Shown in pieces: positions 10,600-35,606 of a stretch of DNA of 46,617 nucleotides. The stretch's first letter is position 1, and each line of letters opens with the position of its first letter. The position numbers and the translations under genes are program-made. The notes below the pieces were generated by a model. That model ran no database searches. It saw only the letters and a program-made list of their open reading frames with translations, and was not told the origin of the DNA. Source of the DNA: a virus (Duplodnaviria > Heunggongvirae > Uroviricota > Caudoviricetes); IMG/VR virus record IMGVR_UViG_3300021600_000003, positions 83,249-129,865 of that record. One strand, given 5' to 3'.

Positions 10600-10848
10600 A
10601 TGATAGTACCTAAAGTTGGTGATTGGGTAAGATTACCTAGTATACGTCCAGCTAATTGGAATCCGTATGGTAAAATGGATCACTTTCTAGGAAAGATTGT
10701 AAAAGTTCTTGATATACGTTATTCAAGCTTTCTTTTTGAAGGTCAACTCGGATGGAATTTTAAATATAGAGAAATTGAAGAGAATCTTGGTCCAGATTAT
10801 GATCCTGATGAAACTCAAACAATTAAAAATCACTATACAATCTTTTAA
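10600..10848 (+). CDS. Small KOW/SH3-like protein with C-terminal tag (..IKNHYTIF)
   Basis: KVGDWVR start; shared tail motif. Confidence 0.8.
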   Translation: MIVPKVGDWVRLPSIRPANWNPYGKMDHFLGKIVKVLDIRYSSFLFEGQLGWNFKYREIEENLGPDYDPDETQTIKNHYTIF

Positions 10849-10850
10849 AA

Positions 10851-11066
10851 ATGGATTATGCAATTAACGCATCATCTATCAAATCAAAGACTTCGATAAA
10901 GTTAGTGTTAACACCTACTAATACTCTCGAGAGAGAGTTCTTTAATCAACTCTTTGCAAATGGTAGTGCTATAATCGAGGCAATTCCTAATACAGAGGAC
11001 ATTGTTATAACCCGTAAGGAGGAAAACGGTAAACCTTCCACTACTGTTAAAGTAGATGAAACATAA
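10851..11066 (+). CDS. Hypothetical protein
   Basis: Start lies 2 nt after the upstream stop. Confidence 0.7.
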   Translation: MDYAINASSIKSKTSIKLVLTPTNTLEREFFNQLFANGSAIIEAIPNTEDIVITRKEENGKPSTTVKVDET

Positions 11067-11150
11067 TTAAGTCACTCAAAATCAAATGTATGTTCAAAGA
11101 CGTATTTATTTTGAAGAAAACATAAAATAACCTCAATAACCCTTGAAAAT

Positions 11151-11182
11151 AAGAGAACCTTAGAAATGAGGTTCTCTTTTAA
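11151..11182 (+). terminator. Intrinsic terminator
   Basis: AAGAGAACCT-TAGAAATG-AGGTTCTCTT plus T-run. Confidence 0.75.
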
Positions 11183-11236
11183 CATTTATTTAACATATTA
11201 GATAGAGATTTTTTGTTTATTTTTCATTTTTATCTC

Positions 11237-11244
11237 TATCTTTG
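11237..11244 (+). promoter_or_regulatory. Bacteroidota -7 promoter box driving the hairpin array
   Basis: TATCTTTG matches the TAnnTTTG consensus; TTTG about 20 nt upstream. Confidence 0.65.
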
Positions 11245-11279
11245 ATATCCAATCATACTTAATACTGTGGTTGGGTAAA

Positions 11280-11607
11280 AGGATACATACAGCAACTATT
11301 TAAGCAATACACTTGTAATGTAAAACAGCTAAAAACTGTATCCTGATAAGAAGTCAGACAGCAAATACAAAAACAATTCTACTTTAAACAGGAACGACTC
11401 GAGTTCGACTCTCGAGACCTTAACAGAGGTGGAGTGGTCTGGAATATCTGTGACTTCTGATAAGAATAGCAACAGCAACTACAACAATTCTACTTTTAAT
11501 GGAAAACAAACGCTATTCTGATAAGATTACCAACAGCAACTAACTAAATTGCTAACCATATACTCTAGCGAGAAAAAATGGTAATCTGATAAGGACGCCT
11601 ACAGCAA
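11280..11607 (+). repeat. Tandem array of 4 hairpin units plus a partial 5th, with ACAGCAA / CTGATAAG motifs and anticodon stem-loop mimics
   Basis: Unit-specific closing stems AGGATAC/GTATCCT, AGAAGTCA/TGACTTCT, AGAATAGC/GCTATTCT, AGATTACC/GGTAATCT; ACAGCAA 5x; CTGATAAG 4x. Confidence 0.85.
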
Positions 11608-11634
11608 TTAAAAATGAGTATTGTAAAAATGTTA

Positions 11635-11663
11635 AAGAGCCCAGCTAATTACTGGGCTTTTTT
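11635..11663 (+). terminator. Intrinsic terminator closing the array transcript
   Basis: AGCCCAG-CTAATTA-CTGGGCT plus T-run. Confidence 0.8.
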
Positions 11664-11687
11664 ATTAACCAAAATTAAAAATTTATC

Positions 11688-11891
11688 ATGCCAAACAAAG
11701 AGTATTTAGAACATCAGGTTATAGATAGCCTGAGCAAGAAACACGATTTAAGGATTGTTGGTAATACTATCCAAGAATTAAACCCTCCTGCATCAAAAGG
11801 TGATGTTGGGATTGGTAGCAAAGGAAAGATTGATTTCCTTCTAAAATATAAGGGATACAGACATATTTATGTTAAAGATTTTAAGAAATAA
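11688..11891 (+). CDS. Small hypothetical protein
   Basis: ORF between two terminators, with AT-rich leader. Confidence 0.7.
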   Translation: MPNKEYLEHQVIDSLSKKHDLRIVGNTIQELNPPASKGDVGIGSKGKIDFLLKYKGYRHIYVKDFKK

Positions 11892-11913
11892 ATATTTTGA
11901 TTTTGGGGACGTA

Positions 11914-11946
11914 GGGGGTACTATAGAAATATGGTACTCCCTTTTT
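11914..11946 (+). terminator. Intrinsic terminator
   Basis: GGGGGTACTA-TAGAAATA-TGGTACTCCC plus T-run. Confidence 0.7.
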
Positions 11947-11969
11947 ACTAACAATTAAATTAAGTTACT

Positions 11970-12173
11970 ATGAGCAAAGAATTAATTGCCTCAGCTAGAC
12001 CCGGTCAGCATCAGGTAAAGATTTACAAAAACAAATATGTTAAGACATTTGTTTATGCAAGAGTACGTAAAATGACATTCATTGAAAATCCCTCCCATAA
12101 AAATTTTATGTCAGCTATTTTTAGAATAGCTCATAATATACTTAAGCAAACATCTATAAAATATAATCCATGA
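11970..12173 (+). CDS. Small basic hypothetical protein
   Basis: ATGA overlap with the next gene. Confidence 0.65.
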   Translation: MSKELIASARPGQHQVKIYKNKYVKTFVYARVRKMTFIENPSHKNFMSAIFRIAHNILKQTSIKYNP

Positions 12174-12442
12174 AATATATCCCTCTAAAAGAACTAGTAG
12201 TTGGTACTTGGTATTATAGTGCTGTTCTTGATTACTTTTTTAAGTTTTTAAAGTTAGAAACTACAAATACTAATTGTGTTTATAGTACAAGACATACAAA
12301 TAAAGGAGAGAATAAAGATTACCTTGATTATTTTTGTCATAGTAAAATGGAAAAAACTATAGAATTAGCTGATATGGATAAAGTAAAGGAGTTTTATCCT
12401 GATGAGTTTCCTGAAATTATTAATACATACGAAATTTTTTAA
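12170..12442 (+). CDS. Small protein with C-terminal tag (..IINTYEIF)
   Basis: ORF track plus shared tail. Confidence 0.8.
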   Translation: MKYIPLKELVVGTWYYSAVLDYFFKFLKLETTNTNCVYSTRHTNKGENKDYLDYFCHSKMEKTIELADMDKVKEFYPDEFPEIINTYEIF

Positions 12443-12444
12443 CT

Positions 12445-12495
12445 ATGAAAAGAGAACATCCTCCAACTATTAATTTATCATATTCAATTTTTTAA
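12445..12495 (+). CDS. 16-aa micro-ORF MKREHPPTINLSYSIF (mostly the C-terminal tag)
   Basis: Manual translation; 2-nt spacing to both the upstream stop and the downstream ATG. Confidence 0.6.
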   Translation: MKREHPPTINLSYSIF

Positions 12496-12497
12496 TT

Positions 12498-12757
12498 ATG
12501 GAATACACAATCACTGATATATATATAATGGCTTTACTTTTAAGAATAATAAAGGAAAAGGTAAAACATATCAAGTTACTAAAATACAATCTACTACTTA
12601 TATACATTTAAAAGGAACTGATAATAATTATGATAATAGTCATTATGAAATTAGTGAGATTGTACGTCTTTTAAATGCTGGAACATATGTAGAGGAAAAA
12701 CTCTTAACGGTTGAGGTAGCTGAACCAATTATAATTAACTCTTACTCAATCTTTTAA
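12498..12757 (+). pseudogene. Tagged small protein (..EPIIINSYSIF) frameshifted at an (AT)5 tract
   Basis: Removing one AT from 12517-12526 gives an 85-aa ORF, MEYTITDIYNGFTFKNNKGKG...IINSYSIF. Confidence 0.75.
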
Positions 12758-12758
12758 T

Positions 12759-13076
12759 ATGAAAAAATTAATATACGGAAAGAATGTACATGAAGGAGAC
12801 ATTGTTACATATGTGAATTCTAATGGGGACCGTTATCCAGCAAAAGTATCTAAAAACGGTCATTGTAGCTGTTATGCATCTATAAAAAATAACTCGTTTT
12901 GCAACTATAGTGGAGGTATTCCAGAAGATGGGATAGAAGAAGCTCTTCCTGAAGAAAAGAAATGGCTTGAAATGTGTATAGCAGAAGGACGACGTGTTGT
13001 TTCCTTTGATAGAGCTGTTGAATTGTATAATTCTGAAAAGACTCATTCTATTATTAACAATTATTCACTTTTTTAA
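12759..13076 (+). CDS. Small protein with C-terminal tag (..IINNYSLF)
   Basis: EGDIV KOW-like start; shared tail. Confidence 0.8.
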   Translation: MKKLIYGKNVHEGDIVTYVNSNGDRYPAKVSKNGHCSCYASIKNNSFCNYSGGIPEDGIEEALPEEKKWLEMCIAEGRRVVSFDRAVELYNSEKTHSIINNYSLF

Positions 13077-13078
13077 TT

Positions 13079-13309
13079 ATGTCACTATTAGATAAAGGAA
13101 TCAAAGTTGGTTCAAGAGTTCGTATGTTGTCCACTACTCAATATGATGAAGATGATAGTAATCCTCGTGATTGTGAGGGTACTGTTGATATATATAATAA
13201 TCATCATGCCTCTGTACAATGGGACAATGGTTATCACAATGGATCATATGATGATAAGGATATTGGATTAGCTGAACCAACCATAATCAATTCATATTCA
13301 CTGTTTTAA
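13079..13309 (+). CDS. Small protein with C-terminal tag (..IINSYSLF); paralog of 15353..15577
   Basis: Shared RVRML.TTQY..DSNPRDC.GTV..WDNG. Confidence 0.85.
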   Translation: MSLLDKGIKVGSRVRMLSTTQYDEDDSNPRDCEGTVDIYNNHHASVQWDNGYHNGSYDDKDIGLAEPTIINSYSLF

Positions 13310-13310
13310 A

Positions 13311-13583
13311 ATGGGTAATGATATTGATATAGCAAGAAGTGCTATCGATAATCTTCAAAGTACTATTGATAACCTTGAAGAAGAAAAGGATAATATATCT
13401 TCCAACTATGATGAGCTAGAAGTCAAATTGGCTAACGCAAATGACAAGATAGAAGAATTAAGAACAGAATTAAGTAATTACTCTACAGAGATTAGTAATC
13501 TTAATAGTGTAATTAATGATTTAGTATCCAAAAATGAAGAACTACAAAAGAACACAGTAAACAACAATTATTCAATCGTTTAA
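13311..13583 (+). CDS. Coiled-coil protein with C-terminal tag (..VNNNYSIV)
   Basis: Heptad-like pattern; shared tail. Confidence 0.8.
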   Translation: MGNDIDIARSAIDNLQSTIDNLEEEKDNISSNYDELEVKLANANDKIEELRTELSNYSTEISNLNSVINDLVSKNEELQKNTVNNNYSIV

Positions 13584-13603
13584 CAAATCAAAACAAAAAC
13601 AAA

Positions 13604-14092
13604 ATGGCAAAGAAAACAGCAACAGACAGCCCTTCATTGGAATTGGCTATTACTAAAGGTGGTATTCCTGATGTAATGAAAGCTCTTGAAGCTAAAATGA
13701 AAGAATTTGAGTTCATTCGTGACTCAAAGTACAAAACTTCCGGTAATCTGGATGGTTTTGGTGACCTGAAGAATGAAAAACTTATCCCTAACCTTATCCG
13801 TGCATACTCACTGGTGTTGGCAAAGTCAACAGCTTATGAGAATGCTGCACAAGATCTTGGTTTATCTTCTTACCCTGCCTTTGAAATTGGCGGTGGATCT
13901 ACTGAAGACTGGAGAAGTGATATCCTCTTGAGGAAAGCTATTATTGAGCAGAAAGAAAACATGGACAAACTGCAGGCCTTCAGGGACAAAGCAGCTAAAT
14001 TCATGTCTGAATCTGATCAGAAAGCAATGTTCTTCCAAGAAATGCAGGCTTTCCTGTCTACTACAGGTGGAGCAATTGAAAGTGGCGACTAA
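13604..14092 (+). CDS. Hypothetical protein (162 aa)
   Basis: ORF followed by a terminator hairpin at about 14102-14130. Confidence 0.8.
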   Translation: MAKKTATDSPSLELAITKGGIPDVMKALEAKMKEFEFIRDSKYKTSGNLDGFGDLKNEKLIPNLIRAYSLVLAKSTAYENAAQDLGLSSYPAFEIGGGSTEDWRSDILLRKAIIEQKENMDKLQAFRDKAAKFMSESDQKAMFFQEMQAFLSTTGGAIESGD

Positions 14093-14143
14093 ATATTTAA
14101 GAAGGGGAAGGGAAACTTTCCCCTTCTTTTTAAAACAACCTTT

Positions 14144-14437
14144 ATGTCATTAATAATAAGTGAACTACAAATAGGAGAAGCATATACAACAATTGGTAAG
14201 GATGTAGGATATACATTTATACATGATGGAGATAGTACATGTGTTTCATATATCTACTATGGTACATATCATACAGGAGGTCATTTATCAAGTATAGATA
14301 ATATTAGCTTTTCTTTTTATGAGAAAGCTAGTGAAATAGACAAAGCATGGCTAGTAGCATGTATAGAAGCTAAACGTACAGTACCAAAACCTGTAGAAAT
14401 CCCTTCTCTTATAAAAAATAATTATTCTTTATACTAA
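14144..14437 (+). CDS. Small protein with C-terminal tag (..IKNNYSLY)
   Basis: ORF track plus shared tail. Confidence 0.8.
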   Translation: MSLIISELQIGEAYTTIGKDVGYTFIHDGDSTCVSYIYYGTYHTGGHLSSIDNISFSFYEKASEIDKAWLVACIEAKRTVPKPVEIPSLIKNNYSLY

Positions 14438-14445
14438 ATATTTGC

Positions 14446-14453
14446 TATCTTTG
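14446..14453 (+). promoter_or_regulatory. Bacteroidota -7 promoter box
   Basis: TATCTTTG followed by CAAAC, ahead of a 330-nt non-coding structured region. Confidence 0.6.
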
Positions 14454-14628
14454 CAAACAGCTTAAACATTGAAAGCTTTATAGTAGAAAACAACCTAATT
14501 CGTACGAACTCTGGTTCCTCTGGATGTCGGGTTATTTCTTCTATATAAAGATACTGTCAGTAATGGCAGACGTAATGGTCCCTTGAGAAAGGATCTGGTC
14601 TTGGGAAACCTTGATTTTTTAACATTAC

Positions 14629-14783
14629 GAATGAGTTCTCAGCAGGCAGAGTACATGACTAGGAGACAAACCTAGCAGAAAAGTTGTACTCTCAGTAGAG
14701 ATACTGTAGGTATAGCCATTGACCCTAACTCAGCTTAGTAATAGATTGGTCTAACCAGATTGTGAAAAGGAGAAGGGTGCTAA
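14629..14783 (+). ncRNA. Structured RNA motif B, copy 1 (pseudoknotted, unassigned)
   Basis: GAAnGAGTTCTCAGCA ... TGACCCT(A)ACTC ... CAGATT ... AGGGTGCTAA, shared with 20447-20583. Confidence 0.65.
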
Positions 14784-14804
14784 TTTTTAATCAAATAAAA
14801 GGAT

Positions 14805-15275
14805 ATGAAAAGAGTACTAGTAATTTTAACGTTATTTATGACGTTAGCAGTAACTTCCAATGCCCAAAAGACACTTGGTACAACCCTATTAACAGGCTAC
14901 AGCTTAAAGGCTGGTGTGCTTTTACAGAACAATGCTACATCTACTGAGGTAGAATTGGGCAAGACTTTTGGAAAACATACTATTAGCTTGGAAGGTAGTT
15001 TTACAAATACTCCAGTGAAGAATTACTTTGCTGGTTTAGAGTATACTAGGAGTGTGTATGAAGTAGGTGCATTTGATTTGGGTGTAGGTGGTGCAGTTAC
15101 TTTTGCCTTAAATAGGTTTCATGCCTTAACCTTTTCACCAAAGGTTGATGCAGGACTTAAATTAGGAAAGTATCTCATTTTGGAGGCTACACTAGCTAGT
15201 CCTATTTATGAGGGGAGCACATTGTTTAAACCCATTAATTTGCAAGCAGGTTTGAAGCTTGGAGTTACTTTGTAA
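14805..15275 (+). CDS. Putative small outer-membrane beta-barrel protein
   Basis: Signal peptide MKRVLVILTLFMTLAVTSNA/Q; alternating Gly/hydrophobic strands; ends GLKLGVTL. Confidence 0.7.
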   Translation: MKRVLVILTLFMTLAVTSNAQKTLGTTLLTGYSLKAGVLLQNNATSTEVELGKTFGKHTISLEGSFTNTPVKNYFAGLEYTRSVYEVGAFDLGVGGAVTFALNRFHALTFSPKVDAGLKLGKYLILEATLASPIYEGSTLFKPINLQAGLKLGVTL

Positions 15276-15295
15276 CCCATAATTGATTTAAAGAC

Positions 15296-15327
15296 AAGGA
15301 GGTTCACATTTGTGGACCTCCTTTTTA
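15296..15327 (+). terminator. Intrinsic terminator
   Basis: AAGGAGGTTCAC-ATTT-GTGGACCTCCTT plus T-run. Confidence 0.8.
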
Positions 15328-15352
15328 TTTACACTAAAAATCTCTTTTAATT

Positions 15353-15577
15353 ATGAAACAAGAAATAGAAATCGAATCAAGAGTTCGTATGTTAAATACT
15401 ACTCAATATGGAGAATGTGATAGTAATCCTCGTGATTGTGATGGTACTGTTACTGATATAAAGGAATATGGAGAATATAGTGTTGTGTGGGATAATGGTC
15501 AAGATAATGGGTCATATACTGATACAGATATTGGACTAATTGTACCAACAATAAATAATAACTATTCAATCTTTTAA
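15353..15577 (+). CDS. Small protein with C-terminal tag (..INNNYSIF); paralog of 13079..13309
   Basis: High nucleotide and protein similarity to 13079..13309. Confidence 0.85.
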   Translation: MKQEIEIESRVRMLNTTQYGECDSNPRDCDGTVTDIKEYGEYSVVWDNGQDNGSYTDTDIGLIVPTINNNYSIF

Positions 15578-15578
15578 C

Positions 15579-15764
15579 ATGAAACATGTATTTTATAAGA
15601 TATCACAAGGAATGTTTTGGCTTGTCATGTCTCTTGCTTATTGTATTTCCCAGTTTTTTATATTATTATGGTATTTTGATTATCATCGTTGTATAAAATT
15701 TCGTACTTTTGTCAAAGATGTAAAAGAATGGATAGAACGTGATGATGATGTTCATCATTATTAA
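15579..15764 (+). CDS. Small membrane protein
   Basis: One hydrophobic segment; coupled start. Confidence 0.65.
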   Translation: MKHVFYKISQGMFWLVMSLAYCISQFFILLWYFDYHRCIKFRTFVKDVKEWIERDDDVHHY

Positions 15765-15827
15765 ATACAATATAAGTGGCTTTGTTAGCCCTCGGACCAA
15801 TATTGGTCAGCATGATAACACATAGAC

Positions 15828-16254
15828 ATGTTAATTGCACACAAGACAGACAAAAGAATTGGTATATGTGATATAGAGACTATGGTCGAATTGTTCGACG
15901 TAGGTATCTATAATCCAGATACTAAAGAGTGGTATGAATTTCAAATATCACAGTACAAGAACGAGCTATTTGAGTTCGTAAAACATTATACATCAGGACA
16001 TTATGATTATTTGGTTACCTTTAATGGTATATCATTTGACCAACAAGTGTTAGAATGGATAGTAGATAATCATCAGAAATGGGCAGAAAACACTAATTTA
16101 GAGATAGTAGAGAAAATCTCTGATTATGCACAAAAGATGATTGATAATAGTAATTATGGTATGTTTCCTCCCTACAAGGAGAGTAGTTTTCGTATACCTC
16201 CCATAGATATCTTCAAGATACATCACTTTGATAATGATGCTAGAAGAACATCCT
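15828..16254 (+). CDS. polB: Family B DNA polymerase, exon 1 (3'-5' exonuclease N-part)
   Basis: CDIET (ExoI) and TFNGISFD (ExoII); splicing joins TCC T|TA AAA TGG to read RRTSLKWCEY. Confidence 0.9.
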
Positions 16255-17360
16255 GAACCACAAATTTAGGGATGTATAAACCTATTGAATTGACTGGAAC
16301 ACCCTTAGAGCTTTGTACACATCCTGCACCAGTAATGAGTGTAGTGGTAAAAGAGACAAAGATTGGGAAATCAGCAGCTAAGAATCCCTCTGGGATTAAA
16401 GTTCAGAGACTATCGAAACCACTTGTAGTGAAACAGGATAAGGGAGTAGAGTAGTGTTAACAATTATTTAACACGAAGTAGTAGGATGATAATGATTCTT
16501 TTCGTATATTTATCAAAAGATAATATATGAAATCAGGAATCTATAGAATTGTAAATCTGAAGAGTGGAAGAGTGTATATTGGTTCAGCACAAGACTTGAA
16601 TGAGAGAAAAATCAATCACTTCTCAATGCTGAGAAACAATAAACATTCATCAATAATTCTTCAGAGAGCTTATAATAAGGCAGAAGATAAGAGTATCTTT
16701 GAATTTCAAATACTAGAGTATTGTAAGAGAGAGAAGTTAATTGAAAGAGAGAATTACTATCTCATAACTCTTTGTAAAGCAAAGGATTATATAGATAAAG
16801 TAACTAAAGACTTTCTTAAGCTATCTTATAACATACTACCAGTAGCAAGTGAAGGATTTTCAGGAAGACATAGACCAGAGAGCATTCAGAAGATGAAAGA
16901 AAATCACCCTTTAAGAAAAGACATTCTAATCTATAAAGATGGATTATTTTTAAAGGAAGTTCTTTCAGGAGAGGATGCTAAGAAAGAGACTGGTTTATCT
17001 AAGAGTGGAATTCTGGAAGCTTGCAGAACAAGAAGATACGTAACAAAATCAGGTTATCTATTTTGTTTTAAGGAAAATAAAGAAGACTTAGAGAGTAATA
17101 TTGGTCTGATTTGGAAGCCTTGGAACAAGGGACAGAGAGGTACAGAGAATTTAAAGAATGCAACTAAAATTGCAGTTAAGAATTTACAGAGTGGAGCTAC
17201 AGAGGTATTCAATTCCCAGTTGGCAGTTTGTAAATTCTATAGTCTTCAACCTTGTACTGTTAACAGATGCTTGAAATCAGGAAAGCCTTACAAAAAGCAA
17301 TTACAATTCGAATATCATAAGATATAGTCCAATCCACCTTGAAAGAGGATGGTAGAAATG
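16255..17360 (+). mobile_element. Group I self-splicing intron with homing endonuclease in L8
   Basis: P1 ACATCCT/GGGATGT with U.G at the 5' splice site; Q-like AATCAGCAGC (16369); R GTTCAGAGACTA (16401); S AAGATATAGTCC (17319); terminal G at 17360; splicing restores the frame (687 aa). Confidence 0.92.
16527..17327 (+). CDS. GIY-YIG homing endonuclease (intron-encoded)
   Basis: GIYRIVNLKSGRVYIGSA; stop codon lies inside the intron S element. Confidence 0.92.
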   Translation: MKSGIYRIVNLKSGRVYIGSAQDLNERKINHFSMLRNNKHSSIILQRAYNKAEDKSIFEFQILEYCKREKLIERENYYLITLCKAKDYIDKVTKDFLKLSYNILPVASEGFSGRHRPESIQKMKENHPLRKDILIYKDGLFLKEVLSGEDAKKETGLSKSGILEACRTRRYVTKSGYLFCFKENKEDLESNIGLIWKPWNKGQRGTENLKNATKIAVKNLQSGATEVFNSQLAVCKFYSLQPCTVNRCLKSGKPYKKQLQFEYHKI

Positions 17361-18997
17361 TAAAATGGTGTGAGTATATGATGAATATGGATGTTGAGGA
17401 AATGCCAATACATTTCTCTCAAAGAAATCTCTCTAGAGAAGATATAGAGAGTACTCAGGAATATCGTCGTCATGATGTTATGGCTACTTACAATTTATTA
17501 CTTCTTACTTTAGGTCAAACTGATTGTTTTAATGAGGATTTAGCTGATTATAAAGGTAAGAATAAGATTCAAGATAGGTTAGACATCATTAAAGAAACTG
17601 GTATGCAGTGCATGAACTGGAGTGATGTTAAGATTGGTGAAGAATGGAATAGGATGGATTATATTAAGTCTGAAAGAATATTAGACGAGAAATCCCTATT
17701 TCCACAAAAAGTTAAACATCCTTATGGACAGAAATTTAAGAATTTCTTTCCAAAAACCATGTCATTTACCACTCCTAAACTTAAGACTTTTATTAAGAAT
17801 CTTGGAGAAGAGTTTGTATTAGCTAAAAAGCAGGAGTTTCCTATTACAATAGGTCAAACTACCTATAATATAGCAAAAGGTGGAATTCACTCTACAGAGA
17901 GAAATAGACAGCTTATATTACCTAACAATCATACTTGTAGTGATGCTGATGTTGGAGCTCAATATCCAAACTCAATTATTAAATTGTTAGTATATCCTCC
18001 GCATTTAAAGAAAACTATTATTGTTAACTTTATCAAAACCAATGAGTTAAAGGATTATTATAAGCAGATTGGTAAAGAAACAGAAGATAAAGCTCTTAAA
18101 TCTTATTATAAAGGATTAGAAGGAGCTACTAAATTACGTATGAATGGTGGATATTATGGCAAGTTAGGTCAAAAAGGTTCATTCCTTGAGTATCCTGAAG
18201 GCTTACTGAAGGTATGTATGGGTAATCAGATTGAGATTTTAATGCTCATAGAAGCTATGGAAGAAGCTGGTTTTACTGTAATATCAGGTAACACTGATGG
18301 TATTGTTACAATATATCCTTTAGATAAAGAAGATAAATACTTTAAGATATGTCATGAATGGGAAGAGAAGGTAGGAAATGTTAAGATGGGTAAACTTGAG
18401 TATGCTAAATTTAAAGGATTATGGCAAGATTCTGTAAACTCATATATTGGATTAAAGGAAGATGGTGGAGTTAAGAAGAAAGGTCGTTTTGTTACTGTAT
18501 ATGGTAGTCCGGGATGTGAGATAAATAAGAATAAATCAAATCGTATTATACCATTAGCTCTAGAGGCATATTTTATAGAAGGTAAGGATCCTCAAGAGTT
18601 TATTAGAAATCATAAGAATATCTATGATTTCTGTATAGCTAAGAAGGCTACTGGAAAAATGCATTATGAGGAACAATGGGAAGAGAATGGTATAATTACT
18701 AAAAAGGTACATAAAAAACTAGTACGTTTCTTTTTATCTACTAAAGGTTCTATCTTATATAAGAGAGGTTTTAACAATATGGGTAAACCTATGAATAATC
18801 ATGTTAATGCTCCAAATAATTTAGGGCAACCACTAGTTACTTATTTTAATAGATTCTTTAAGAAAGATGATTATGATATTGATTATAATCAGTATATATT
18901 AGAGACTCTAGAGAGAATAGATAGCTTGGAAGGAACAAAGAAGGCAAAAGCATTTTTGGATAACCTTCGTCCAACAAAACAATTGTCATTATTTTAA
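17361..18997 (+). CDS. polB: Family B DNA polymerase, exon 2
   Basis: Motif A DADVGAQYPNSI, motif B KLRMNGGYYGKLG, motif C SGNTDGI; C-terminal QLSLF. Confidence 0.92.
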
Positions 18998-19008: not shown

Positions 19009-19299
19009 ATGTTACCAGAAAAATGGGTTATACAAAATAAGAAAAAGGATAAACAATTTCGAGATACTTTCTTCTCATTTATGAAAACAATTCTTTCACC
19101 TAATGAGTATGTTACTCTCACTAATCATTATAGTATAGGTTGGACTTATTTTCATTTTCCAAATTATACAACTTGTAAAGGATTTCTATTTGGAGATCAT
19201 ACTGCTCTTTATAAAGAGGAAGGTTATACTGAAGTAACTTTATATAATTTGATAGAAAATTGTGAATTAACTATTAATAACACATATACAATCTTTTAG
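19009..19299 (+). CDS. Small protein (MLPEKW..) with C-terminal tag (..INNTYTIF)
   Basis: ORF track plus shared tail. Confidence 0.8.
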   Translation: MLPEKWVIQNKKKDKQFRDTFFSFMKTILSPNEYVTLTNHYSIGWTYFHFPNYTTCKGFLFGDHTALYKEEGYTEVTLYNLIENCELTINNTYTIF

Positions 19300-24469: not shown

Positions 24470-24489
24470 CATAAAATAAAAATAATATT

Positions 24490-24921
24490 ATGAATCCACT
24501 TAATTTTTTAATAGGATTGATTATATTGGGAGCCTTTATTTCGTGTGAAAAAACTTTACCAAAAGAACCACCTCCTACAACAATCATCACATACTATCGT
24601 CTTCAAATTAATGATAATGATGGTAAGTTTATTCATAGTCAAATTGTTACAGGTAAGGAAGTACAAAGTTTTAATGGTAATCCTGTATCTGATGATGGTC
24701 ATCATGAGTGTGAAGAACATCCTGAACATTGTCCTATTGTACCAATTATATTGGAGTATTTTAATATTTCAATTGGAGAGAAAGTAATTCTTTCTTGGAA
24801 AATGGCTGCACAAGATAATGTTAAAGACTTTGAAATACAATCCTCTAAAGATGGTATTACATTTAAAACTATTGCAATTGTATTTCCTAACTATTTAGGA
24901 GAATATCTTATTAAACTCTAA
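24490..24921 (+). CDS. Putative lipoprotein with a Bacteroidota Ig-like (LPVEL-type) domain fragment
   Basis: Lipobox-like GAFIS/C; VPIILEYF..VILSW....DN...FEIQSS.DG..F..IA.V pattern. Confidence 0.65.
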   Translation: MNPLNFLIGLIILGAFISCEKTLPKEPPPTTIITYYRLQINDNDGKFIHSQIVTGKEVQSFNGNPVSDDGHHECEEHPEHCPIVPIILEYFNISIGEKVILSWKMAAQDNVKDFEIQSSKDGITFKTIAIVFPNYLGEYLIKL

Positions 24922-24980
24922 TCTTGATGACTGCATTTTTACAACCTTGTACCCTGCATTAACCCTAAAAACAATTAATA

Positions 24981-25517
24981 ATGGATATAATTAGTATACC
25001 ACTTGGAATATTAATATTAATATTCTTTGTCATGTGTTTACCAAACAATAAAAATATGGAAAAAACTAAAGAATCTCCAGAAACTGGAGATAAACCAACA
25101 AAAGAAGAAATTAGTGCTGTAACTGATACTATCTTAGGGTGTATGGCACAAAGATTTGAGGAAAATCAGAAAAAACCATTTCAGTATGTAGTAGCATATT
25201 ATGACAAGAACGATAATTTTCTTGGATATCATGATAGCACTTTCTGTACTCTTACTCAAAAGAAAGAACAAGGAAAACGTTATAGCGGTGAAAACCCTTA
25301 TAATCAGTTAGCTATAATTCGTAAAAACCTTGATTATACATTAAATATGACTGAGGAGAAAACTGAAGGAAAAATATTTGCTAAACTCAACCTACAAACT
25401 AAAGAACAACACTTCCCAAATTTAGGGGTAGAAGATGTCTTTATTGAGGCTGAATATCTTGAGGAAGGTATAGCACCTCAACGTTTTGTATGGAAAGAAA
25501 TAACCACAGATGACTGA
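24981..25517 (+). CDS. Hypothetical protein (N-terminal TM or later start MEKTKE)
   Basis: ORF track. Confidence 0.7.
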   Translation: MDIISIPLGILILIFFVMCLPNNKNMEKTKESPETGDKPTKEEISAVTDTILGCMAQRFEENQKKPFQYVVAYYDKNDNFLGYHDSTFCTLTQKKEQGKRYSGENPYNQLAIIRKNLDYTLNMTEEKTEGKIFAKLNLQTKEQHFPNLGVEDVFIEAEYLEEGIAPQRFVWKEITTDD

Positions 25518-25908
25518 TAAATATCTACAACCAAAAGCTAACTTCAATAGATTGTTAGCCGATTATATACGATATGGTAACTTAACTATTGGTTTTGATT
25601 TTGATGATACTGTATATGACTGTTATGGTAGTGGACACAATTATCCTCTAGTAAGACAGCTTCTAAGAGATTTAAAATCAATAGGTTGTACATTAGTATG
25701 TTGGACAGCTAATAAAGATTTAGCATTTGTTTCTAAATTTCTTGATGAGAATGATATACCTTTTGATAGTATCAATGAGGGAGGTATAGCTTTACCATGG
25801 GAAAGTAAAAAACCCTTCTTTTCTGCATTACTAGATGACCGAGCTGGTTTACTACAAGTATATACAGAACTGAGGGAATTTGTTGACATTATAAAAAAAG
25901 AGAAATGA
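25510..25908 (+). CDS. HAD-superfamily hydrolase-like protein
   Basis: DFDDT motif I, WTA motif II, LLDDR motif IV. Confidence 0.75.
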   Translation: MTDKYLQPKANFNRLLADYIRYGNLTIGFDFDDTVYDCYGSGHNYPLVRQLLRDLKSIGCTLVCWTANKDLAFVSKFLDENDIPFDSINEGGIALPWESKKPFFSALLDDRAGLLQVYTELREFVDIIKKEK

Positions 25909-26792
25909 AAGTAGGTGTTATAATTGGGAGATTTCAAAGTCCTTATATCCATCATGGATATGAGGACTTAATAGAATATATTAGGAAAAATAATGATAAG
26001 TTAGTTATAGTTGTTGGAGGAAATGAAACAAAGTTTACTAATAAAAATCCTCTATCTTTTGAAACTAGGAAGGTAATGTTATCAAAAACATATCCTTATG
26101 CAGATATTCTCTACTTACAGGATACACCTTTAGATAGTGATTGGAGTGCCTCTTTGGATTTACTATTGTCCCCATATAATAATGTTACCTTATATGGTAG
26201 TAGAGATAGTTTTATATCATGTTATACTGGAGTAAACAAAACTGAGGAGTATAACGCTGTTATAAATATATCTTCTAGTACTATCAGAGAGAAGATATCT
26301 AAAATACCTCCCTACAAACATAATAAATCATTCAGAAGTGGTATTGTTTATGCTGTTGAGAATAAATATCCTATTACATTTCCTACTGTAGATATTGCTA
26401 TAGTAAATGTTAGAAGAGATGAAATAATATTGGGAAAGAAACGTAATAATTCTAAATTATGCTTTCCGGGAGGATTTGTAGATAGAAAAGATAAATCTTT
26501 TGAGCATGCTGCTATACGAGAGTTTAGTGAAGAAGTAACTGATATAACAATACATAGCTTAAATTATGTATCTTCTCATCAAGTAGATGATTGGAGATAT
26601 AGAGGTTGCTCTGATGGAATTATAACTAGCTTTTTTACTGGAATAGGTTCAGGTATTCCAAAAGCAAGTGATGATTTAGAAACTGCTGAATGGTATAATA
26701 TCAAAGATTTTGATATAAATAACTTACAATCATGTCATCATGTATTATTTGAATCATTAATAAAATATTTACAAATAAAATATTCAATATGA
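25905..26792 (+). CDS. nadM: Bifunctional NMN adenylyltransferase / Nudix (ADP-ribose pyrophosphatase), NadM-Nudix type
   Basis: IGRFQSPYIHHGY, NPLSF..RK.M, ISSSTIRE; Nudix box FPGGFVD...AAIREFSEE. Confidence 0.9.
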   Translation: MKVGVIIGRFQSPYIHHGYEDLIEYIRKNNDKLVIVVGGNETKFTNKNPLSFETRKVMLSKTYPYADILYLQDTPLDSDWSASLDLLLSPYNNVTLYGSRDSFISCYTGVNKTEEYNAVINISSSTIREKISKIPPYKHNKSFRSGIVYAVENKYPITFPTVDIAIVNVRRDEIILGKKRNNSKLCFPGGFVDRKDKSFEHAAIREFSEEVTDITIHSLNYVSSHQVDDWRYRGCSDGIITSFFTGIGSGIPKASDDLETAEWYNIKDFDINNLQSCHHVLFESLIKYLQIKYSI

Positions 26793-28189
26793 GAAAAAAT
26801 ATAACTATTGATACTGATGCCTATAAGATAACTCATTGGCTTCAGCGTCCTCAAAACATAACAAAACTCTATAGCTATGGTGAACCTAGAGTAGGTGGAA
26901 AAGATAAAGAAATATGTTTCTTTGGATTATCTCCAGCTATACAAGAGCACTTATTGTTTCCAGTAACTAATGAAATGATTGAGGAAGGTATTGAAGAATG
27001 TATCTCTACTTTTGGTACTCCTGCCTATTTTAATAAGGCAGTTTGGGAGAAAGTAAGAGATTTAGGATACTTTCCTATTAAAATTATGAGTGCTCCAGAA
27101 GGAATGATAATTGGGGAAGGAAATGTTTGCTTTACTATAGAGAGCACTGAGCCATGGTTTGCTAATATGATAAGTCACTTTGAGGATATCTTAATGTGGG
27201 TATGGTACGCTACTGGCGTTTGTACTAGAAGTATGAATATCAAGAGAGGTATTAGACCAGCTTTTGAGAAGTCTTCTGATATTGGTAATTTAATATTACC
27301 TGTAGCAGTAAATGATTTTGGTTTAAGAGGAGCTACTTATCATGAGGGTGCTATAATGGGAGGAATGGCTCATTTAGTACATTTTGTGGGTAGTGATAAT
27401 ATGCCAGCTTCTAGGATGATAAAGGACTTTTATAATTATAAGGGTCGTGCAAAGAGTGTTTGGGCAACTGAACATTCTGTAGCAACAAGCTATGGTAATG
27501 GAAGGGGAGAATATGATTATGTAATAGCTCAATTATCTCAACATACTGACAAAATTAAGTCAATTGTTATAGATAGTTATGATGCAGATAACTTCATGCA
27601 GAATATTGTAGGAAGTGATGAAATCAAAAGATTAGTAATAGCTCATGAAGGAAGAATAGTTTGGAGACCAGATACTGGTAAACCTCTCACTAACGTATGC
27701 AAGTATTCTGATGTTTTAGGTGCTATTTTTGGATTTGATATGAATAGCAAAGGTTATAAGACAATAAAACATAATACAGGCTTAATACAAGGTGATGGTA
27801 TGACAGAAGAAACTATACCTGAATTATATGATGAGTATATTAAAACGGGTTGGTCTGCTGATAATATCATTACAGGTTCTGGTGGAGGATTACTAGAAGA
27901 AGGGTTAACAAGGGATACTCAAAGATGGGCTATTAAGGCTTCCTATGGAGAAAAAGATGATATTCCCTTTGATATACGTAAAACTCCAAAGAATGATATG
28001 TCCAAACAAAGTAAAGGTGGTAAAGTAAAATTGCATACTCCTCATACTACTCTTGAGTCCTCTAAAGAGACAAAGATAATGTTTGATGCATATCAGAACT
28101 TATTAATACCTGTATATGATAATGGAAAGTTCTACAAACAGAATTTTGAGGATATTATAGAAAGAGCTAATAAAGACTATTATACTTAA
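26789..28189 (+). CDS. nadV: Nicotinamide phosphoribosyltransferase
   Basis: DTDAYKITHW, DFGLRG, HLVHFVGSD, ATEHSV, IVIDSYD, WRPDTG, IQGDG. Confidence 0.92.
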   Translation: MRKNITIDTDAYKITHWLQRPQNITKLYSYGEPRVGGKDKEICFFGLSPAIQEHLLFPVTNEMIEEGIEECISTFGTPAYFNKAVWEKVRDLGYFPIKIMSAPEGMIIGEGNVCFTIESTEPWFANMISHFEDILMWVWYATGVCTRSMNIKRGIRPAFEKSSDIGNLILPVAVNDFGLRGATYHEGAIMGGMAHLVHFVGSDNMPASRMIKDFYNYKGRAKSVWATEHSVATSYGNGRGEYDYVIAQLSQHTDKIKSIVIDSYDADNFMQNIVGSDEIKRLVIAHEGRIVWRPDTGKPLTNVCKYSDVLGAIFGFDMNSKGYKTIKHNTGLIQGDGMTEETIPELYDEYIKTGWSADNIITGSGGGLLEEGLTRDTQRWAIKASYGEKDDIPFDIRKTPKNDMSKQSKGGKVKLHTPHTTLESSKETKIMFDAYQNLLIPVYDNGKFYKQNFEDIIERANKDYYT

Positions 28190-30217: not shown

Positions 30218-30451
30218 ATGAAAGAAGGAGATAATGTCATTTTATATGATATAAAAACAGAAAAGGAATGGGATACAATAGGATTTGTTAATTTAACAGA
30301 TTATGGATTAAAAATAGGAGAAACTTATACTATACATAGTATAAGTAGCAATACTCTTCAATTAGTAGAAGATACGTACAAATGGAATATTCCGTTTATT
30401 TGTTTTAGTGAACCTATACCATCTATAATCGATAATTATGAATTAATATGA
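30218..30451 (+). CDS. Small protein with C-terminal tag (..IIDNYELI)
   Basis: MKEGDNV KOW-like start; shared tail. Confidence 0.75.
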   Translation: MKEGDNVILYDIKTEKEWDTIGFVNLTDYGLKIGETYTIHSISSNTLQLVEDTYKWNIPFICFSEPIPSIIDNYELI

Positions 30452-30696
30452 GAAACGAAAATATTGGACAAAAAATCCGATTTGTACGAAAACCTACTTC
30501 TGATGAATGGAAAGGAATAGGTGAAATACCATTTTCAAAAAGACTTGAAGAAGCTATAGAAAAAGGTTTACCATTAATACTTCAGGATATTCATAATCAC
30601 TTTAATAGTATATATATAGAAGGAGAAGATGGCTGGTGGCCTATAGTTTGTTTTGAGTTGTATAGTGCTATAAAGGACAATTATTCTATATTTTAA
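30448..30696 (+). CDS. Small protein with C-terminal tag (..IKDNYSIF)
   Basis: Shared tail; stop overlaps the helicase ATG. Confidence 0.8.
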   Translation: MRNENIGQKIRFVRKPTSDEWKGIGEIPFSKRLEEAIEKGLPLILQDIHNHFNSIYIEGEDGWWPIVCFELYSAIKDNYSIF

Positions 30697-32757: not shown

Positions 32758-32810
32758 CTAACAAATCCTCTCGAAAGAGAGGTTCGACATTGTAAATTAA
32801 CAACCAATAT

Positions 32811-33371
32811 ATGGCAACATTTAGCAAACTCAAACCCACTACTAAATTGAGTGAAACTCAGTTTTATAGTGTAGAGAAGATTACAGGCAACAAAGTACAG
32901 TTGCGGAATGATTTAGGTGATGTTATTACTGTTGATGATAAGTATGTAGAAGCATGCTTAGTATCTGCAGAAGAAATTATCACTGAAAAGATTATGTCAC
33001 GTACAGACTTGACTAATCTATTCTTAGTATCTACAAACGTAGCTTTGACAGTAAACTACAACAAACAAGTAGATCCAAAAGAAGTAAAAACTCAATTACA
33101 TTCTCTTTATCCTAATAAGGGTGGAAAGATACTGTCAGAAATTGATTACCAGAAAAAAGTTAACAGTCTATTATCTACTGCTCTTGAGGGAGAAGAAAGA
33201 ACTATGATTGGAAGACATTATGGTAGTAAAGATGAATTTGGTAGAGTACGTTTTATTGATATGGAACTGACAACAGATCCATCTAAAGATTATGATACTC
33301 GTCAAAGGTTAGTAGATACTCGTACAATTAACTGGTTAATTCTACGTGGTGTAAAGTACAAAGTAAAGTAA
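32811..33371 (+). CDS. Hypothetical replication-module protein
   Basis: 186-aa ORF. Confidence 0.8.
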   Translation: MATFSKLKPTTKLSETQFYSVEKITGNKVQLRNDLGDVITVDDKYVEACLVSAEEIITEKIMSRTDLTNLFLVSTNVALTVNYNKQVDPKEVKTQLHSLYPNKGGKILSEIDYQKKVNSLLSTALEGEERTMIGRHYGSKDEFGRVRFIDMELTTDPSKDYDTRQRLVDTRTINWLILRGVKYKVK

Positions 33372-33451
33372 ACTTTGCCTGTTCTTAAGTGACTTCCCCC
33401 GTAAGGGAAGCCCTCGGGTTACAATATCGTAACCACTTAAAAAACAATAAT

Positions 33452-34429
33452 ATGGCAGTAAAAGGAAGACAAAAAGAACAAAAAGAGTTTACAAACAAAC
33501 TATTTGTTGGCTTTACAGCAGTTAAAGTAATTGCAGTAAATCCTACCAGAGAAGAACTCAACAAGATTTTGGGAAAAGAAGACAGTCAAGAAGACAAAGC
33601 AATTACGTATTTAGGAAGTGACCAAGAAGGTAATGACCGTATGCGTATTTTATTTGTACTAAAGGATGACAAAAATGAGAAAATCTTCTTCCATTCATTT
33701 AATCTTACTAACAAAGTAAGAAAGAATAAGGAAGGGGACAAATGTCAGATTGTTAATTCCACTTGCTCTACTAGTTGGGCACCATTTATCAAAGCACTTG
33801 ATAAAAAAGGTAAAGCTATTCTAGATGAGAATGGTAAAGAAACGTATACTGAGAAAGTGAATGCTGAACTCATTCAAGATTGGTTTGCAAACTTTACTAA
33901 CAAGGAAAAGGAAGTTCTTGGTCCAAAGAAATGGAGAGAAGCCTTATCTGGTGAAGAAGAGTTAGTTACATTACTTAGAAGTTGGCTTGGAAGGCTAGAC
34001 TTTATGGATCCTGAAACTGAAGTATTTGTTGATACAGCTAAACTGTTCAAGGAAAACTTCAAAGAGTTAAGGGAGCTTATTAGTTTAGACGAATCAGGTA
34101 ACTTTACAGATGGTGGATTAGATACCCCATTTGTAGTACTATTAGGTGTAAGAACTGATGAAGATGATGCTACTAAAAAGTATCAACAAATATGGGGTAA
34201 AGCATTCTTACCTGCAGGATTCATGAAGTATATCAATAACGACATGAAGTTTCCTACAGACTATTCTAAGAAAATCTTTAAGAAATTCAAGGAAGAAGTT
34301 GAAGGTGATTATGGCTTTAATGGCTATACAGAGTTGGTACCTTTGATAGAGTATGATGAAGCTAAAGACATTGCTGGTAGTGCTACTACTGGTAAAGAAA
34401 TAGCTGCACCTACATCTGGAGATTACTAA
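33452..34429 (+). CDS. Putative single-stranded DNA-binding protein
   Basis: GFTAVKVIAVNPTREEL start, acidic tail, position between Sak4-like ATPase and primase; function is inferred. Confidence 0.55.
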   Translation: MAVKGRQKEQKEFTNKLFVGFTAVKVIAVNPTREELNKILGKEDSQEDKAITYLGSDQEGNDRMRILFVLKDDKNEKIFFHSFNLTNKVRKNKEGDKCQIVNSTCSTSWAPFIKALDKKGKAILDENGKETYTEKVNAELIQDWFANFTNKEKEVLGPKKWREALSGEEELVTLLRSWLGRLDFMDPETEVFVDTAKLFKENFKELRELISLDESGNFTDGGLDTPFVVLLGVRTDEDDATKKYQQIWGKAFLPAGFMKYINNDMKFPTDYSKKIFKKFKEEVEGDYGFNGYTELVPLIEYDEAKDIAGSATTGKEIAAPTSGDY

Positions 34430-34450
34430 GGATTTTGTACGAAAAGTGAA

Positions 34451-34479
34451 GGAGGGCTCAGAAATGGGCTCTCCTTTTT
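34451..34479 (+). terminator. Intrinsic terminator
   Basis: GGAGGGCTC-AGAAAT-GGGCTCTCC plus T-run. Confidence 0.8.
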
Positions 34480-34536
34480 ATTTAACTTAAAAATTTATAA
34501 TATGTGTTTTTATATATTATTATAAACCATGTTAAT

Positions 34537-35571
34537 ATGATAAAAGGAAGATTAAAAGTTAAACCTCTAGAGAAAGAAGATATACTACGGAGAATTACTC
34601 CGTATGATATTTACCGTCTATATCAGGGATCATTCAAACTGAATGATGTTTGTGTAAATTATCATAGAGGGGAGAAAAACCCTTCTCTTATTATAAGTAC
34701 TCGTCTGTCTAGTCAGCTTCGACATAAGGATTTTGGAGATAAAGACTGGAGTGGAGACTGTTTTAATTTTGTACAACAGATTCATAGATGTGACTTTGGT
34801 ACGGCTTTAAAGATTATCGATAGAGACTTCTGTCTAGGACTTACAAATGGAAAAGTAGTTAATAATAAACAAATCATTACTTGGGGACAACCTGAGGTTG
34901 AGGAAAAACGTCCTCCACTTTTTCAGATAATTTATTATTCTCATATGTCTAGACAAGCTTTAGATTATTGGAAGAAATTTGGAGTTACTGAAGCAGATTT
35001 AAGAAAAGAACATATATATCAGCCAGCAGAAATTTGGAGAAATAGGAAGAAGATACCTATGGGTAATTTAATGACATTTGCTTATCATTATCCTGAAATA
35101 GATAAATGGAAGATATATCGACCATTTGCTCCAAAGAGAACAGAGAGTACTCCTATCAATCAATGGAAGTGGGATAGTAATGTTCCCTTTGATTATATCG
35201 ATAATATGTCAGCCATCAAAGGTGACTGTACAGCTATGTTCCTTGCTAAGAGTAAGAAGGATAGATTAGTATTAATGAATGCGTTAGGTACTGATTGTAT
35301 TGCTGATGTTCAGGCAGAAGATGCAGGATGTCTTACATTTGAGAATTTGGAACAATTTAAGACAGTTGATAAAAGGTATATTATCTCTGATAATGATAAA
35401 AAGGGCAAAGAGTTCTCTTGGTGGTTAACAAAGGAGCACGGCTTTAAGCACGTAAATGTTCCAGATAAGTATCTTCTTGAGACTCCAAAGTGTACAGATT
35501 TTGCAGACTTATGCTATCATCATGGTATGGAAGCAGTTATTAGTTACTTTAAAACAAAACAGATTATATGA
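34537..35571 (+). CDS. DNA primase (crAss-like, Toprim)
   Basis: Degenerate Zn-binding region (CVNYHRGEKNPS, DFG..SGDCF); AKSKKD; ISDNDKKG. Confidence 0.8.
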   Translation: MIKGRLKVKPLEKEDILRRITPYDIYRLYQGSFKLNDVCVNYHRGEKNPSLIISTRLSSQLRHKDFGDKDWSGDCFNFVQQIHRCDFGTALKIIDRDFCLGLTNGKVVNNKQIITWGQPEVEEKRPPLFQIIYYSHMSRQALDYWKKFGVTEADLRKEHIYQPAEIWRNRKKIPMGNLMTFAYHYPEIDKWKIYRPFAPKRTESTPINQWKWDSNVPFDYIDNMSAIKGDCTAMFLAKSKKDRLVLMNALGTDCIADVQAEDAGCLTFENLEQFKTVDKRYIISDNDKKGKEFSWWLTKEHGFKHVNVPDKYLLETPKCTDFADLCYHHGMEAVISYFKTKQII

Positions 35572-35606
35572 CAACACAAATTATTAACGATTATAATATA
35601 TTTTAA
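35568..35606 (+). CDS. 12-aa micro-ORF MTTQIINDYNIF (tag-only peptide)
   Basis: ATG overlaps the primase stop (ATGA); its TAA abuts the next ATG at 35607. Confidence 0.6.
   Translation: MTTQIINDYNIF

Follow-up and report, generated by a model that had tools for sequence, protein, structure and literature searches.

Phage proteins can reach a common partner through a short peptide at one end of the chain. In T4, gp33, gp55, gp43 and the ligase dock on clamps by short terminal motifs (PMC2988020, PMC6212786), as does MuC in phage Mu (PMC12867686). T4 also employs a capsid targeting sequence, a portable address of about ten residues carried by hypervariable, non-essential small proteins that are encoded in plastic arrays (PMC3012670). 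Among C-terminal degrons, such as those associated with ClpXP or Tsp, a free C-terminus combined with a disordered, non-polar tail is typical (e.g. PMC10638403). A C-terminal tail that invites comparison with these systems is described here from the right-hand 46.6 kb of a 129,865-bp IMG/VR record, IMGVR_UViG_3300021600_000003, from an uncultured lake-water crAss-like phage (G000). This stretch (46,617 nucleotides, nt; positions 83,249 to 129,865 of the record) is referred to as the window, and all positions below are window positions unless a contig is named. Thirteen tails with a Tyr fourth from the end are found there on small open reading frames (ORFs) or their remnants. With a probability of roughly one half, and judging from sequence comparison, the tail is a trans-acting docking tag that is portable over a set of interchangeable accessory proteins.

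Literature searches for the motif and for shared phage C-terminal tags found no published description, as the original prediction had supposed. As far as could be found, the tag, its genome-specific variants (here called dialects) and an untagged companion gene that accompanies it are undescribed; in kind, they are similar to the T4 capsid targeting sequence and to terminal motifs already known for docking.

A C-terminal tail on mostly unrelated small proteins

The original prediction, made from the window alone, named thirteen mostly unrelated small proteins with a common C-terminal tag. All thirteen tails are present, each with its Tyr at the fourth position from the end and a stop codon directly after it (11 TAA, one TAG, one TGA). 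The count of proteins was too generous, as two of the tails belong to mini-ORFs of 12 and 16 codons and one, ending at 12757, to a reading frame without a start. The tagged features are as follows.

10600 to 10848, + strand: tagged ORF, 82 amino acids (aa), tail IKNHYTIF; its ortholog on contig L025 (54% identity) ends IKNNYSLF
12170 to 12442, + strand: tagged ORF, 90 aa, tail IINTYEIF; the L025 ortholog ends INNSYLIF
12445 to 12495, + strand: tagged mini-ORF, 16 aa (MKREHPPTINLSYSIF), tail TINLSYSIF
12498 to 12757, + strand: frameshifted tagged gene, tail IINSYSIF; the tail frame lacks a start codon, and ATG 12498 is in another frame
12759 to 13076, + strand: tagged ORF, 105 aa, tail IINNYSLF; beta-rich domain and two helices, followed by a variable linker
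13079 to 13309, + strand: tagged ORF, 76 aa, DUF4314-like body, tail IINSYSLF; a 58%-identical ortholog, P0004, ends VKNNYSIF
13311 to 13583, + strand: tagged ORF encoding a coiled coil, 90 aa, with the weaker tail VNNNYSIV; the companion gene comes directly after it
14144 to 14437, + strand: tagged ORF, 97 aa, tail IKNNYSLY; paralog of 12759, with no tightly following gene
15353 to 15577, + strand: tagged ORF, 74 aa, tail INNNYSIF; paralog of 13079
19009 to 19299, + strand: tagged ORF, 96 aa, tail INNTYTIF, TAG stop; follows the polymerase gene closely
30218 to 30451, + strand: tagged ORF, 77 aa, tail IIDNYELI, TGA stop; between two helicase genes
30448 to 30696, + strand: tagged ORF, 82 aa, tail IKDNYSIF
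35568 to 35606, + strand: tagged mini-ORF, 12 aa (MTTQIINDYNIF), tail IINDYNIF; it starts within an ATGA shared with the end of the primase gene, and the next ATG follows its stop immediately

Chance does not explain these tails. When 260 non-nested ORFs of at least 35 aa were taken from the whole genome and the last 25 residues of each were shuffled over 5000 rounds, 0.0036 matches were expected and no round gave more than one, whereas ten of the 260 real ORFs match. A six-frame scan of the 129,865-bp genome with [IV]x[ND]xY[STEN][IL][FYVI] returned 14 matches, of which 12 abut a + strand stop. All 12 fall at 10.8-35.6 kb of the window, and none was found in the 83 kb that carries the structural genes. 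The thirteenth tail, TINLSYSIF, keeps the same eight-residue frame with Leu at position -6 (the last residue being -1).

Relatives were found through the untagged 162-aa companion gene (13604 to 14092), and the contigs encoding its homologs were then fetched. Each contig obtained in this way contains a run of small genes with the same kind of tail. Pooled, these comprise 78 tagged ORFs of at least 40 aa on 13 contigs, and they fall into 36 BLAST clusters, which bears out the proposed portability of the tag across unrelated bodies. Counts at the informative positions of the 78 tails are listed below.

Position -1: Phe 36, Tyr 29, Ile 6
Position -2: Ile 69, Leu 8, Val 1
Position -3: Ser 28, Glu 23, Gln 10, Asp 7
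Position -4: Tyr 78
Position -5: Asn 42, Ser 15, Thr 8, His 3, Asp 3, Gln 3
Position -6: Asn 48
Position -8: Ile 39, Val 15
Position -10: Pro 29

The consensus is P-x-[IV]-[NIK]-N-[NS]-Y-[SEQD]-[IL]-[FYI]-COOH, and the final 12-14 residues of one tagged protein read AEPTIINSYSLF. The tail is a strictly C-terminal short linear motif on a flexible linker of variable length. In the family of the 105-aa protein at 12759, the distance from body to tail differs by 0-9 residues, and an AlphaFold model has a predicted local distance difference test (pLDDT) score of 84 for the body and below 50 for the nine tail residues (97-105), so that the tail is predicted to be disordered. The conserved residues alternate (-8, -6, -4, -2), which suggests an extended strand presenting one face, in addition to the free C-terminal residue.

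The bodies to which the tail is attached have little in common. At least six to seven unrelated ones occur in the window. Instead of the single paralog pair noticed originally there are three, 13079 with 15353 (E 2e-25), 12759 with 14144 (E 3e-4) and perhaps 30218 with 30448. Comparison with Pfam and PHROGs gave only coiled-coil noise, apart from PHROGs of unknown function for the DUF4314-like pair. The coiled-coil member was correctly recognized (13311 to 13583); its orthologs end NNNYIL, NNNYSIV and NDSYSIT. The suggestion that many bodies are KOW- or SH3-like agrees only in part with the results, as the 12759 body has weak fold matches alone, to SH3-like barrels of the Sm and Tudor type. 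Large enzymes are indeed untagged: no protein above 105 aa has the tail in this genome, and the largest tagged protein among the relatives has 194 aa.

The last residue and position -3 vary with the genome and not with the protein family, and these dialects are distributed as follows.

YS[IL]F: G000 (this phage), L025, L027, L038
YSII: L033, L035
YEIY: L029
Y[QED]I[FY]: L032, L166, L167, L170, L171

Tails of the form NNYEIY or NYQIF are found on L029, L166, L167 and L170, and the members of a single ortholog group end in Phe, Tyr or Ile depending on the genome that encodes them. Such a concerted, genome-wise change of the last residue is expected from one shared reader or from mutual recognition among the tails. 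From the sequences compared, the YS[IL]F tail is the local variant of a wider Y-x-I-[FY] tag; Tyr at -4, Ile or Leu at -2, an aromatic or aliphatic residue at -1 and an immediate stop are found in 13 of 13 window tails. A short contig, L023 (Ga0164310_10034667), contains three small ORFs at 1075-2353 that end in [YC]-K-S-I-W followed by a stop, two of them DUF4314-like paralogs and one unrelated. This ending may represent another dialect, and the contig is too short for the presence of a companion to be read from it.

The tagged phages constitute one clade of environmental crAss-like phages. A scan of IMG/VR with the DUF4314-like tagged family gave no match, a metagenome scan gave only distant homologs with different tails (L023 and L024), and in a search with a mixed 60-aa alignment the sole outside protein was P0004. 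The array has no blastn match among GenBank phages. Exact-protein look-ups led to contigs L018-L020, which are 100% identical to the window and show no strain-level variation. The sister phage G001 has no tags, no orthologs of any tagged protein and no alternative shared tail.

Conservation acts on the peptide. In seven ortholog or paralog groups, amino acid identity is 60% in the tail against 44% in the bodies, while 40% of the identical residues have different codons, in tail and body alike. This equal divergence means that there is no extra constraint on the tail DNA overall. Survival of the tail in orthologs from related phages, on which the original prediction had staked its case, was observed, as was the synonymous variation that it had reported, and its conclusion that selection acts on a peptide and not on a DNA repeat holds. 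For instance, P0004 (on L021, 58% identical to 13079) shares AEP-x-[IV]-x-N-x-Y-S-[IL]-F with its ortholog through the changes TAT>TAC, TTT>TTC and CTG>ATA. Position -2 is encoded by ATC, ATA, ATT, TTA, CTT, CTG and CTC, Ile and Leu being exchanged through unrelated codons. In the YEIY dialect the next start lies within the tail codons (TATGAA). In the YS[IL]F dialect the ATG of the next gene lies outside the tail codons, so peptide conservation is not attributable to that overlap.

The 16-residue mini-ORF at 12445-12495 has a tail resembling that of the L025 gene at 8398-8673 (GYPTVKNNYSIF), which occupies the equivalent position, and is probably the start-plus-tail remnant of a deleted gene. 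Further tail remnants were seen on L027 (6267-6296, a ten-codon start-less KVINNAYSIF) and on L033 (1203-1271, a 21-codon ORF ending HLNDSYSII), each just 5′ of a gene. The tail ending at 12757 is thrown out of the frame of ATG 12498 by an (AT)5 run at 12517-12526. Contigs from two lake DNA sequencing runs were compared at this site. The frameshifted version is identical in three assemblies, while a contig from the second lake sample (run X2; depth only 2) has 2 nt fewer at 12517 and encodes an intact 85-aa tagged ORF. The length difference could reflect on/off switching by a length-variable repeat, or simple decay. For the 12-residue mini-ORF at 35568-35606, a programmed -1 frameshift that would tag the primase was considered and dropped: the primase ends KQII and its G001 ortholog KGIIL, and since these endings are alike the mini-ORF is not a frameshift extension of the primase.

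The companion gene and a proposed common reader

A conserved gene that accompanies the tag is itself untagged.

13604 to 14092, + strand: companion gene inside the array, encoding a helical protein of 162 aa; candidate reader of the tag

On 13 of 13 tag-bearing contigs the companion lies within or beside the array. Its fold model is helical (pLDDT 78). It has no match in Pfam, PHROGs or PDB, its fold matches are uncharacterised phage proteins only, tblastn against GenBank phages gave no match, and an Atlas search returned nothing informative. The family is nevertheless sizeable, with 1035 cluster representatives. Neither tblastn nor a profile hidden Markov model (HMM) detected a companion in the tagless G001, although the flanking small genes are shared and the replication genes are 66-87% identical. 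A distant branch repeats the arrangement with another peptide: on L168 (IMGVR_UViG_3300033121_001335), a companion homolog of 36% identity lies amid an array at 5585-17256 in which 19 of the 47 ORFs have the ending P-[QL]-[IL]-F-N before the stop, a different shared tail within the same gene architecture. On L171 (4820-5542; P0024, 240 aa), a tagged ORF and the companion are read as one protein (…VNNYQIKTIT-MSEK…) because no stop codon separates them; the fusion may be natural or the result of a lost stop.

If the tail is a docking tag, one common reader would accommodate it in a groove as an extended strand, contacted through the side chains at -8, -6, -4 and -2, and the free aromatic or aliphatic residue at the C-terminus would be part of what is recognized. 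Gene bodies could then be gained, lost or swapped while every product would still reach the same place. The best candidate reader would be the companion, as a phage-made hub or chaperone. That the tail binds, and which protein reads it, is what we infer; among the candidates the companion is placed first, followed by the clamp, a role in cis at the gene junction, and a degron. The original prediction had called the tag an address label that sends many effectors to a single partner. Its portability was borne out, and the single partner is putative.

A more specific version of the docking reading is tentative, being possible rather than probable. According to it, the companion of about 155 aa would be a dedicated receptor or chaperone for a lineage-specific C-terminal peptide, namely YS[IL]F here, YEIY or YQIF in relatives and P[QL]IFN in the distant branch. 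Any small gene that gained a tail would thereby join the same machine, allowing modular recruitment and exchange of accessory or anti-host effectors. When the companion and the tagged 76-aa protein were modelled as a complex, in a run without controls, the score was 0.00, which is evidence neither way.

An alternative candidate reader is the host clamp. The original prediction had aligned the tag with the clamp-binding motif on the phage polymerase, and that motif is indeed present.

17378 to 18997, + strand: C-terminal part of the DNA polymerase, with the canonical clamp-binding motif QLSLF at its end

As a variant of this motif, the tag would allow small proteins to use, or compete for, the peptide pocket of host DnaN in the way the polymerase QLSLF does. 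The polymerase has comparable endings in G001 (QQLTLF) and L027 (QTSLW), a phage clamp gene was looked for and not found (no PF00712), the tagged genes sit in the replication module, and the final three tag residues, [SED]-[IL]-[FY], match [SD]-L-F, with both motifs C-terminal. The alignment is weaker than was claimed, however. No position varies more than the one that corresponds to the motif's conserved Gln, which is Gln in 3 of 78 tails. The conserved Asn is one residue upstream of it, an invariant Tyr takes the place of Leu, and the conserved positions -6 and -8 have no counterpart. Moreover, a conserved host pocket would not be expected to go with dialects that end in Phe, Ile or Tyr, or in IFN on L168; G001 has the same type of polymerase tail and no tags, and a dozen competitors for the phage's own processivity factor would seem costly. 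Docking on the clamp is thus considered unlikely.

Possible gene-junction effects and other explanations

Several observations weigh against docking of the tail on the companion, or against any role of the tail as a peptide in trans. L039 encodes a clear companion homolog (HMM E 1e-45), yet no shared Y-x-I-[FY] tail occurs within 8 kb of it, so the companion is not an obligate tag reader. Two adjacent small ORFs on this contig (11681-12216) end LILDNVW and TILDVLW. The association of tag and companion is also biased because sampling began from the companion gene, and the converse was tested by G001 only. At the nucleotide level, codon usage in the tails departs strongly from that in the bodies of these genes (e.g. 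13295-13309 and 15563-15577). For Ser at -3 the codon is TCA in 27 of 29 cases, against 16-23% elsewhere, and for Ile at -2 it is ATC in 23 of 42, against 10-16% elsewhere. In 44 of 49 tails, codon -3 has A as its third base, and 51% of the Asn codons in tails are AAC. A tRNA-Ser(UGA), which reads TCA, is among the genes of the phage. The next start is at most 5 nt away in seven of ten tagged genes against 31% of untagged genes (p = 0.03). Finally, translatable mini-ORFs consist of little beyond the tag, which a cis-acting role fits at least as well.

The codon bias, the close spacing and the mini-ORFs would be accounted for if the conserved element worked in cis at the gene junction, either as a nascent peptide at the peptidyl-transferase centre that modulates termination and re-initiation on the next ORF, or as an RNA or DNA cassette that supplies the start context of the next gene and a recombination site for shuffling genes. 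In both versions the tag on the protein would be a by-product. The next ATG is mostly 0-4 nt past the stop, mini-ORFs of 12-21 codons and one start-less remnant directly precede genes, and the next start is embedded in the tail codons of the YEIY dialect. Examined as a junction cassette, the tail gave a divided result: its synonymous divergence equals that of the bodies and its amino acid classes are kept, yet the TCA, ATC and third-base-A bias and the tight spacing to the next ATG persist. The residual nucleotide bias may possibly reflect selection for precise decoding of the key residues, or it may belong to the downstream start context.

On the other side, Ile/Leu and Phe/Tyr/Ile exchanges proceed through dissimilar codons, and the peptide is kept in this phage although the next ATG lies outside the tail. 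Tags also precede A-rich leaders of 10-32 nt and occur once at the end of a transcription unit; the tagged gene at 14144-14437 is followed by a promoter-like TTTG…TATCTTTG. Independent start regions differ (e.g. CAAAACAAAAACAAAATG), genes are packed equally tightly in the tagless G001, and neither a variable linker nor a genome-wide change of the last residue would be expected of a ribosomal signal. A cis role of the tail is judged improbable.

The docking reading could also be satisfied by a host protease or its adaptor, with the tail acting as a C-terminal degron or as a mimic of the ssrA tag that is added by transfer-messenger RNA (tmRNA), time-limiting the accessory proteins or turning them into decoys. 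In five Bacteroidota genomes, ARAGORN identified tmRNA tags of the sequence GENNYALAA (two Flavobacterium, one from a lake), GENTYALAA, GEENYALAA and GNEEFALAA, which have [N/E]-[N/T]-Y-small-L in common with tails such as IINNYSLF. The strictly free C-terminus and the disordered, non-polar tail also fit the degron type. No phage tmRNA able to encode the tag was found. ClpX in Escherichia coli reads the terminal Ala-Ala of the ssrA tag; here the register is off by one and Ala-Ala is replaced by one bulky Phe, Tyr or Ile. Since several known terminal motifs were compared, a partial match to one of them is unsurprising. The companion gene and the IFN dialect are left unexplained, and a degron is accordingly given little credence.

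Virion packaging was among the destinations proposed originally. crAss-like virions carry cargo proteins, and tagged proteins could in principle be packed into the capsid or tail, to be injected together with the DNA. The architecture is analogous to that of T4 IPI-III and Alt, where hypervariable arrays of small unrelated proteins bear a signal of about ten residues (PMC3012670). In this phage the signal is C-terminal with no evident cleavage site, and the tagged genes are co-directional with replication and anti-defence genes in the replication/accessory module and not in the structural module, where no tag occurs. These points count against a packaging or ejection signal, and make it very improbable. 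Least probable of all is binding of the tails to one another, as a beta-zipper or small amyloid-like sheet of Asn/Tyr/Ile-rich strands perhaps scaffolded by the tagged coiled coil: the I-x-N-x-Y-x-I alternation looks strand-like and aggregation-prone, concerted genome-specific change is expected of a self-recognizing motif and the coiled-coil member is tagged and conserved beside the companion, but that member has the weakest tail (final Val, Thr or Leu).

Genomic setting and comparison with known systems

Every real gene in the window is on the + strand. Replication is represented by a DNA polymerase interrupted by a GIY-YIG gene, a primase, two helicases, an AAA_24 protein and a ligase, and RIIA and RIIB are also encoded. 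The tagged genes are interspersed with replication, accessory and anti-defence genes that run in the same direction, at a distance from the structural module. The polymerase locus (15828-18997) corresponds to a single uninterrupted gene of 683 aa in G001. Here it is divided into an N-terminal piece of 142 aa (15828-16256) and a C-terminal piece of 539 aa (17378-18997), with a 60-aa ORF and the gene of a GIY-YIG homing endonuclease (16527-17327) between them. Counter-defence genes are found at 21256-28189 and 43695-44885. They encode Tad3 (of the Thoeris inhibitor family), NAMPT, an NMN-adenylyltransferase/Nudix protein and a PARP-like ADP-ribosyltransferase; the pair of NAMPT and NMN-adenylyltransferase/Nudix presumably regenerates NAD+.

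Other proteins in these phages have C-terminal endings of a different type. The 346-aa product of 33389-34429 has no family match and ends …TSGDY; its language-model neighbours include DUF669, a family that includes phage single-strand-binding-like proteins. It may be a phage single-stranded DNA-binding protein (SSB) with an aromatic C-terminus in the style of T7 gp2.5. The bacterial SSB tip is [IL]-P-F, and the endings …SKNLPF (36590-37330), …SQVLPF (G001 43640-44113) and …IEILPF (G001 60108-60464) resemble it; they may constitute another terminal docking motif. On L027, a 70-aa ORF has the ending DEEEEFITTDTFPF.

Most small early or accessory phage genes have no known function, and here dozens of proteins (36 clusters) have a common short handle. 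The tail peptide offers a tractable entry to their shared hub, be it a phage protein, the host clamp or a host protease, and the genome-specific dialects are natural specificity variants for its recognition. The tag could also become a search key for accessory and anti-defence genes in uncultured Bacteroidota phages. If the companion is the reader, the arrays would constitute a new virus-encoded system of modular effector recruitment, and a large unannotated family of phage proteins would acquire a function.

Among known systems, the beta-clamp motif QL[SD]LF and the tails of T4 gp43, gp33 and gp55 (PMC2988020, PMC9690074) are alike in placing a short terminal peptide on unrelated proteins that meet at one hub. 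The tag possesses the hydrophobic [LIM]-F pair preceded by a small or acidic residue, so that the ending [SD/E]-[LI]-[F/Y] is alike. It differs in the non-conserved Gln, the invariant Tyr at the second position of the motif, the conserved upstream positions, its strict C-terminality and its lineage dialects. The T4 capsid targeting sequence (PMC3012670) is a close parallel for a portable address on small, hypervariable and dispensable proteins. In contrast to the tag of this replication/accessory module, it is N-terminal, is cleaved by the prohead protease and belongs to late virion proteins.

The Bacteroidota ssrA tag GENNYALAA is likewise a disordered C-terminal peptide with a free end and an N-N-Y-small-L core. 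It is added by tmRNA and ends in Ala-Ala (all those found end ALAA), whereas the tail described here is gene-encoded, ends in [IL]-[FYI] and is shifted in register by one residue. ChAD tails of toxin-antitoxin-chaperone systems are short C-terminal extensions on varied antitoxins, with one small dedicated reader protein encoded beside them (for context, bioRxiv 10.1101/2024.02.24.581848). There the reader is SecB-like; here the companion is all-helical with an unknown fold, many clients exist per candidate reader and no toxin is present. If the companion does act as a receptor for lineage-specific peptides, the logic would be comparable to that of eukaryotic short-motif hubs, with every component encoded by the virus.

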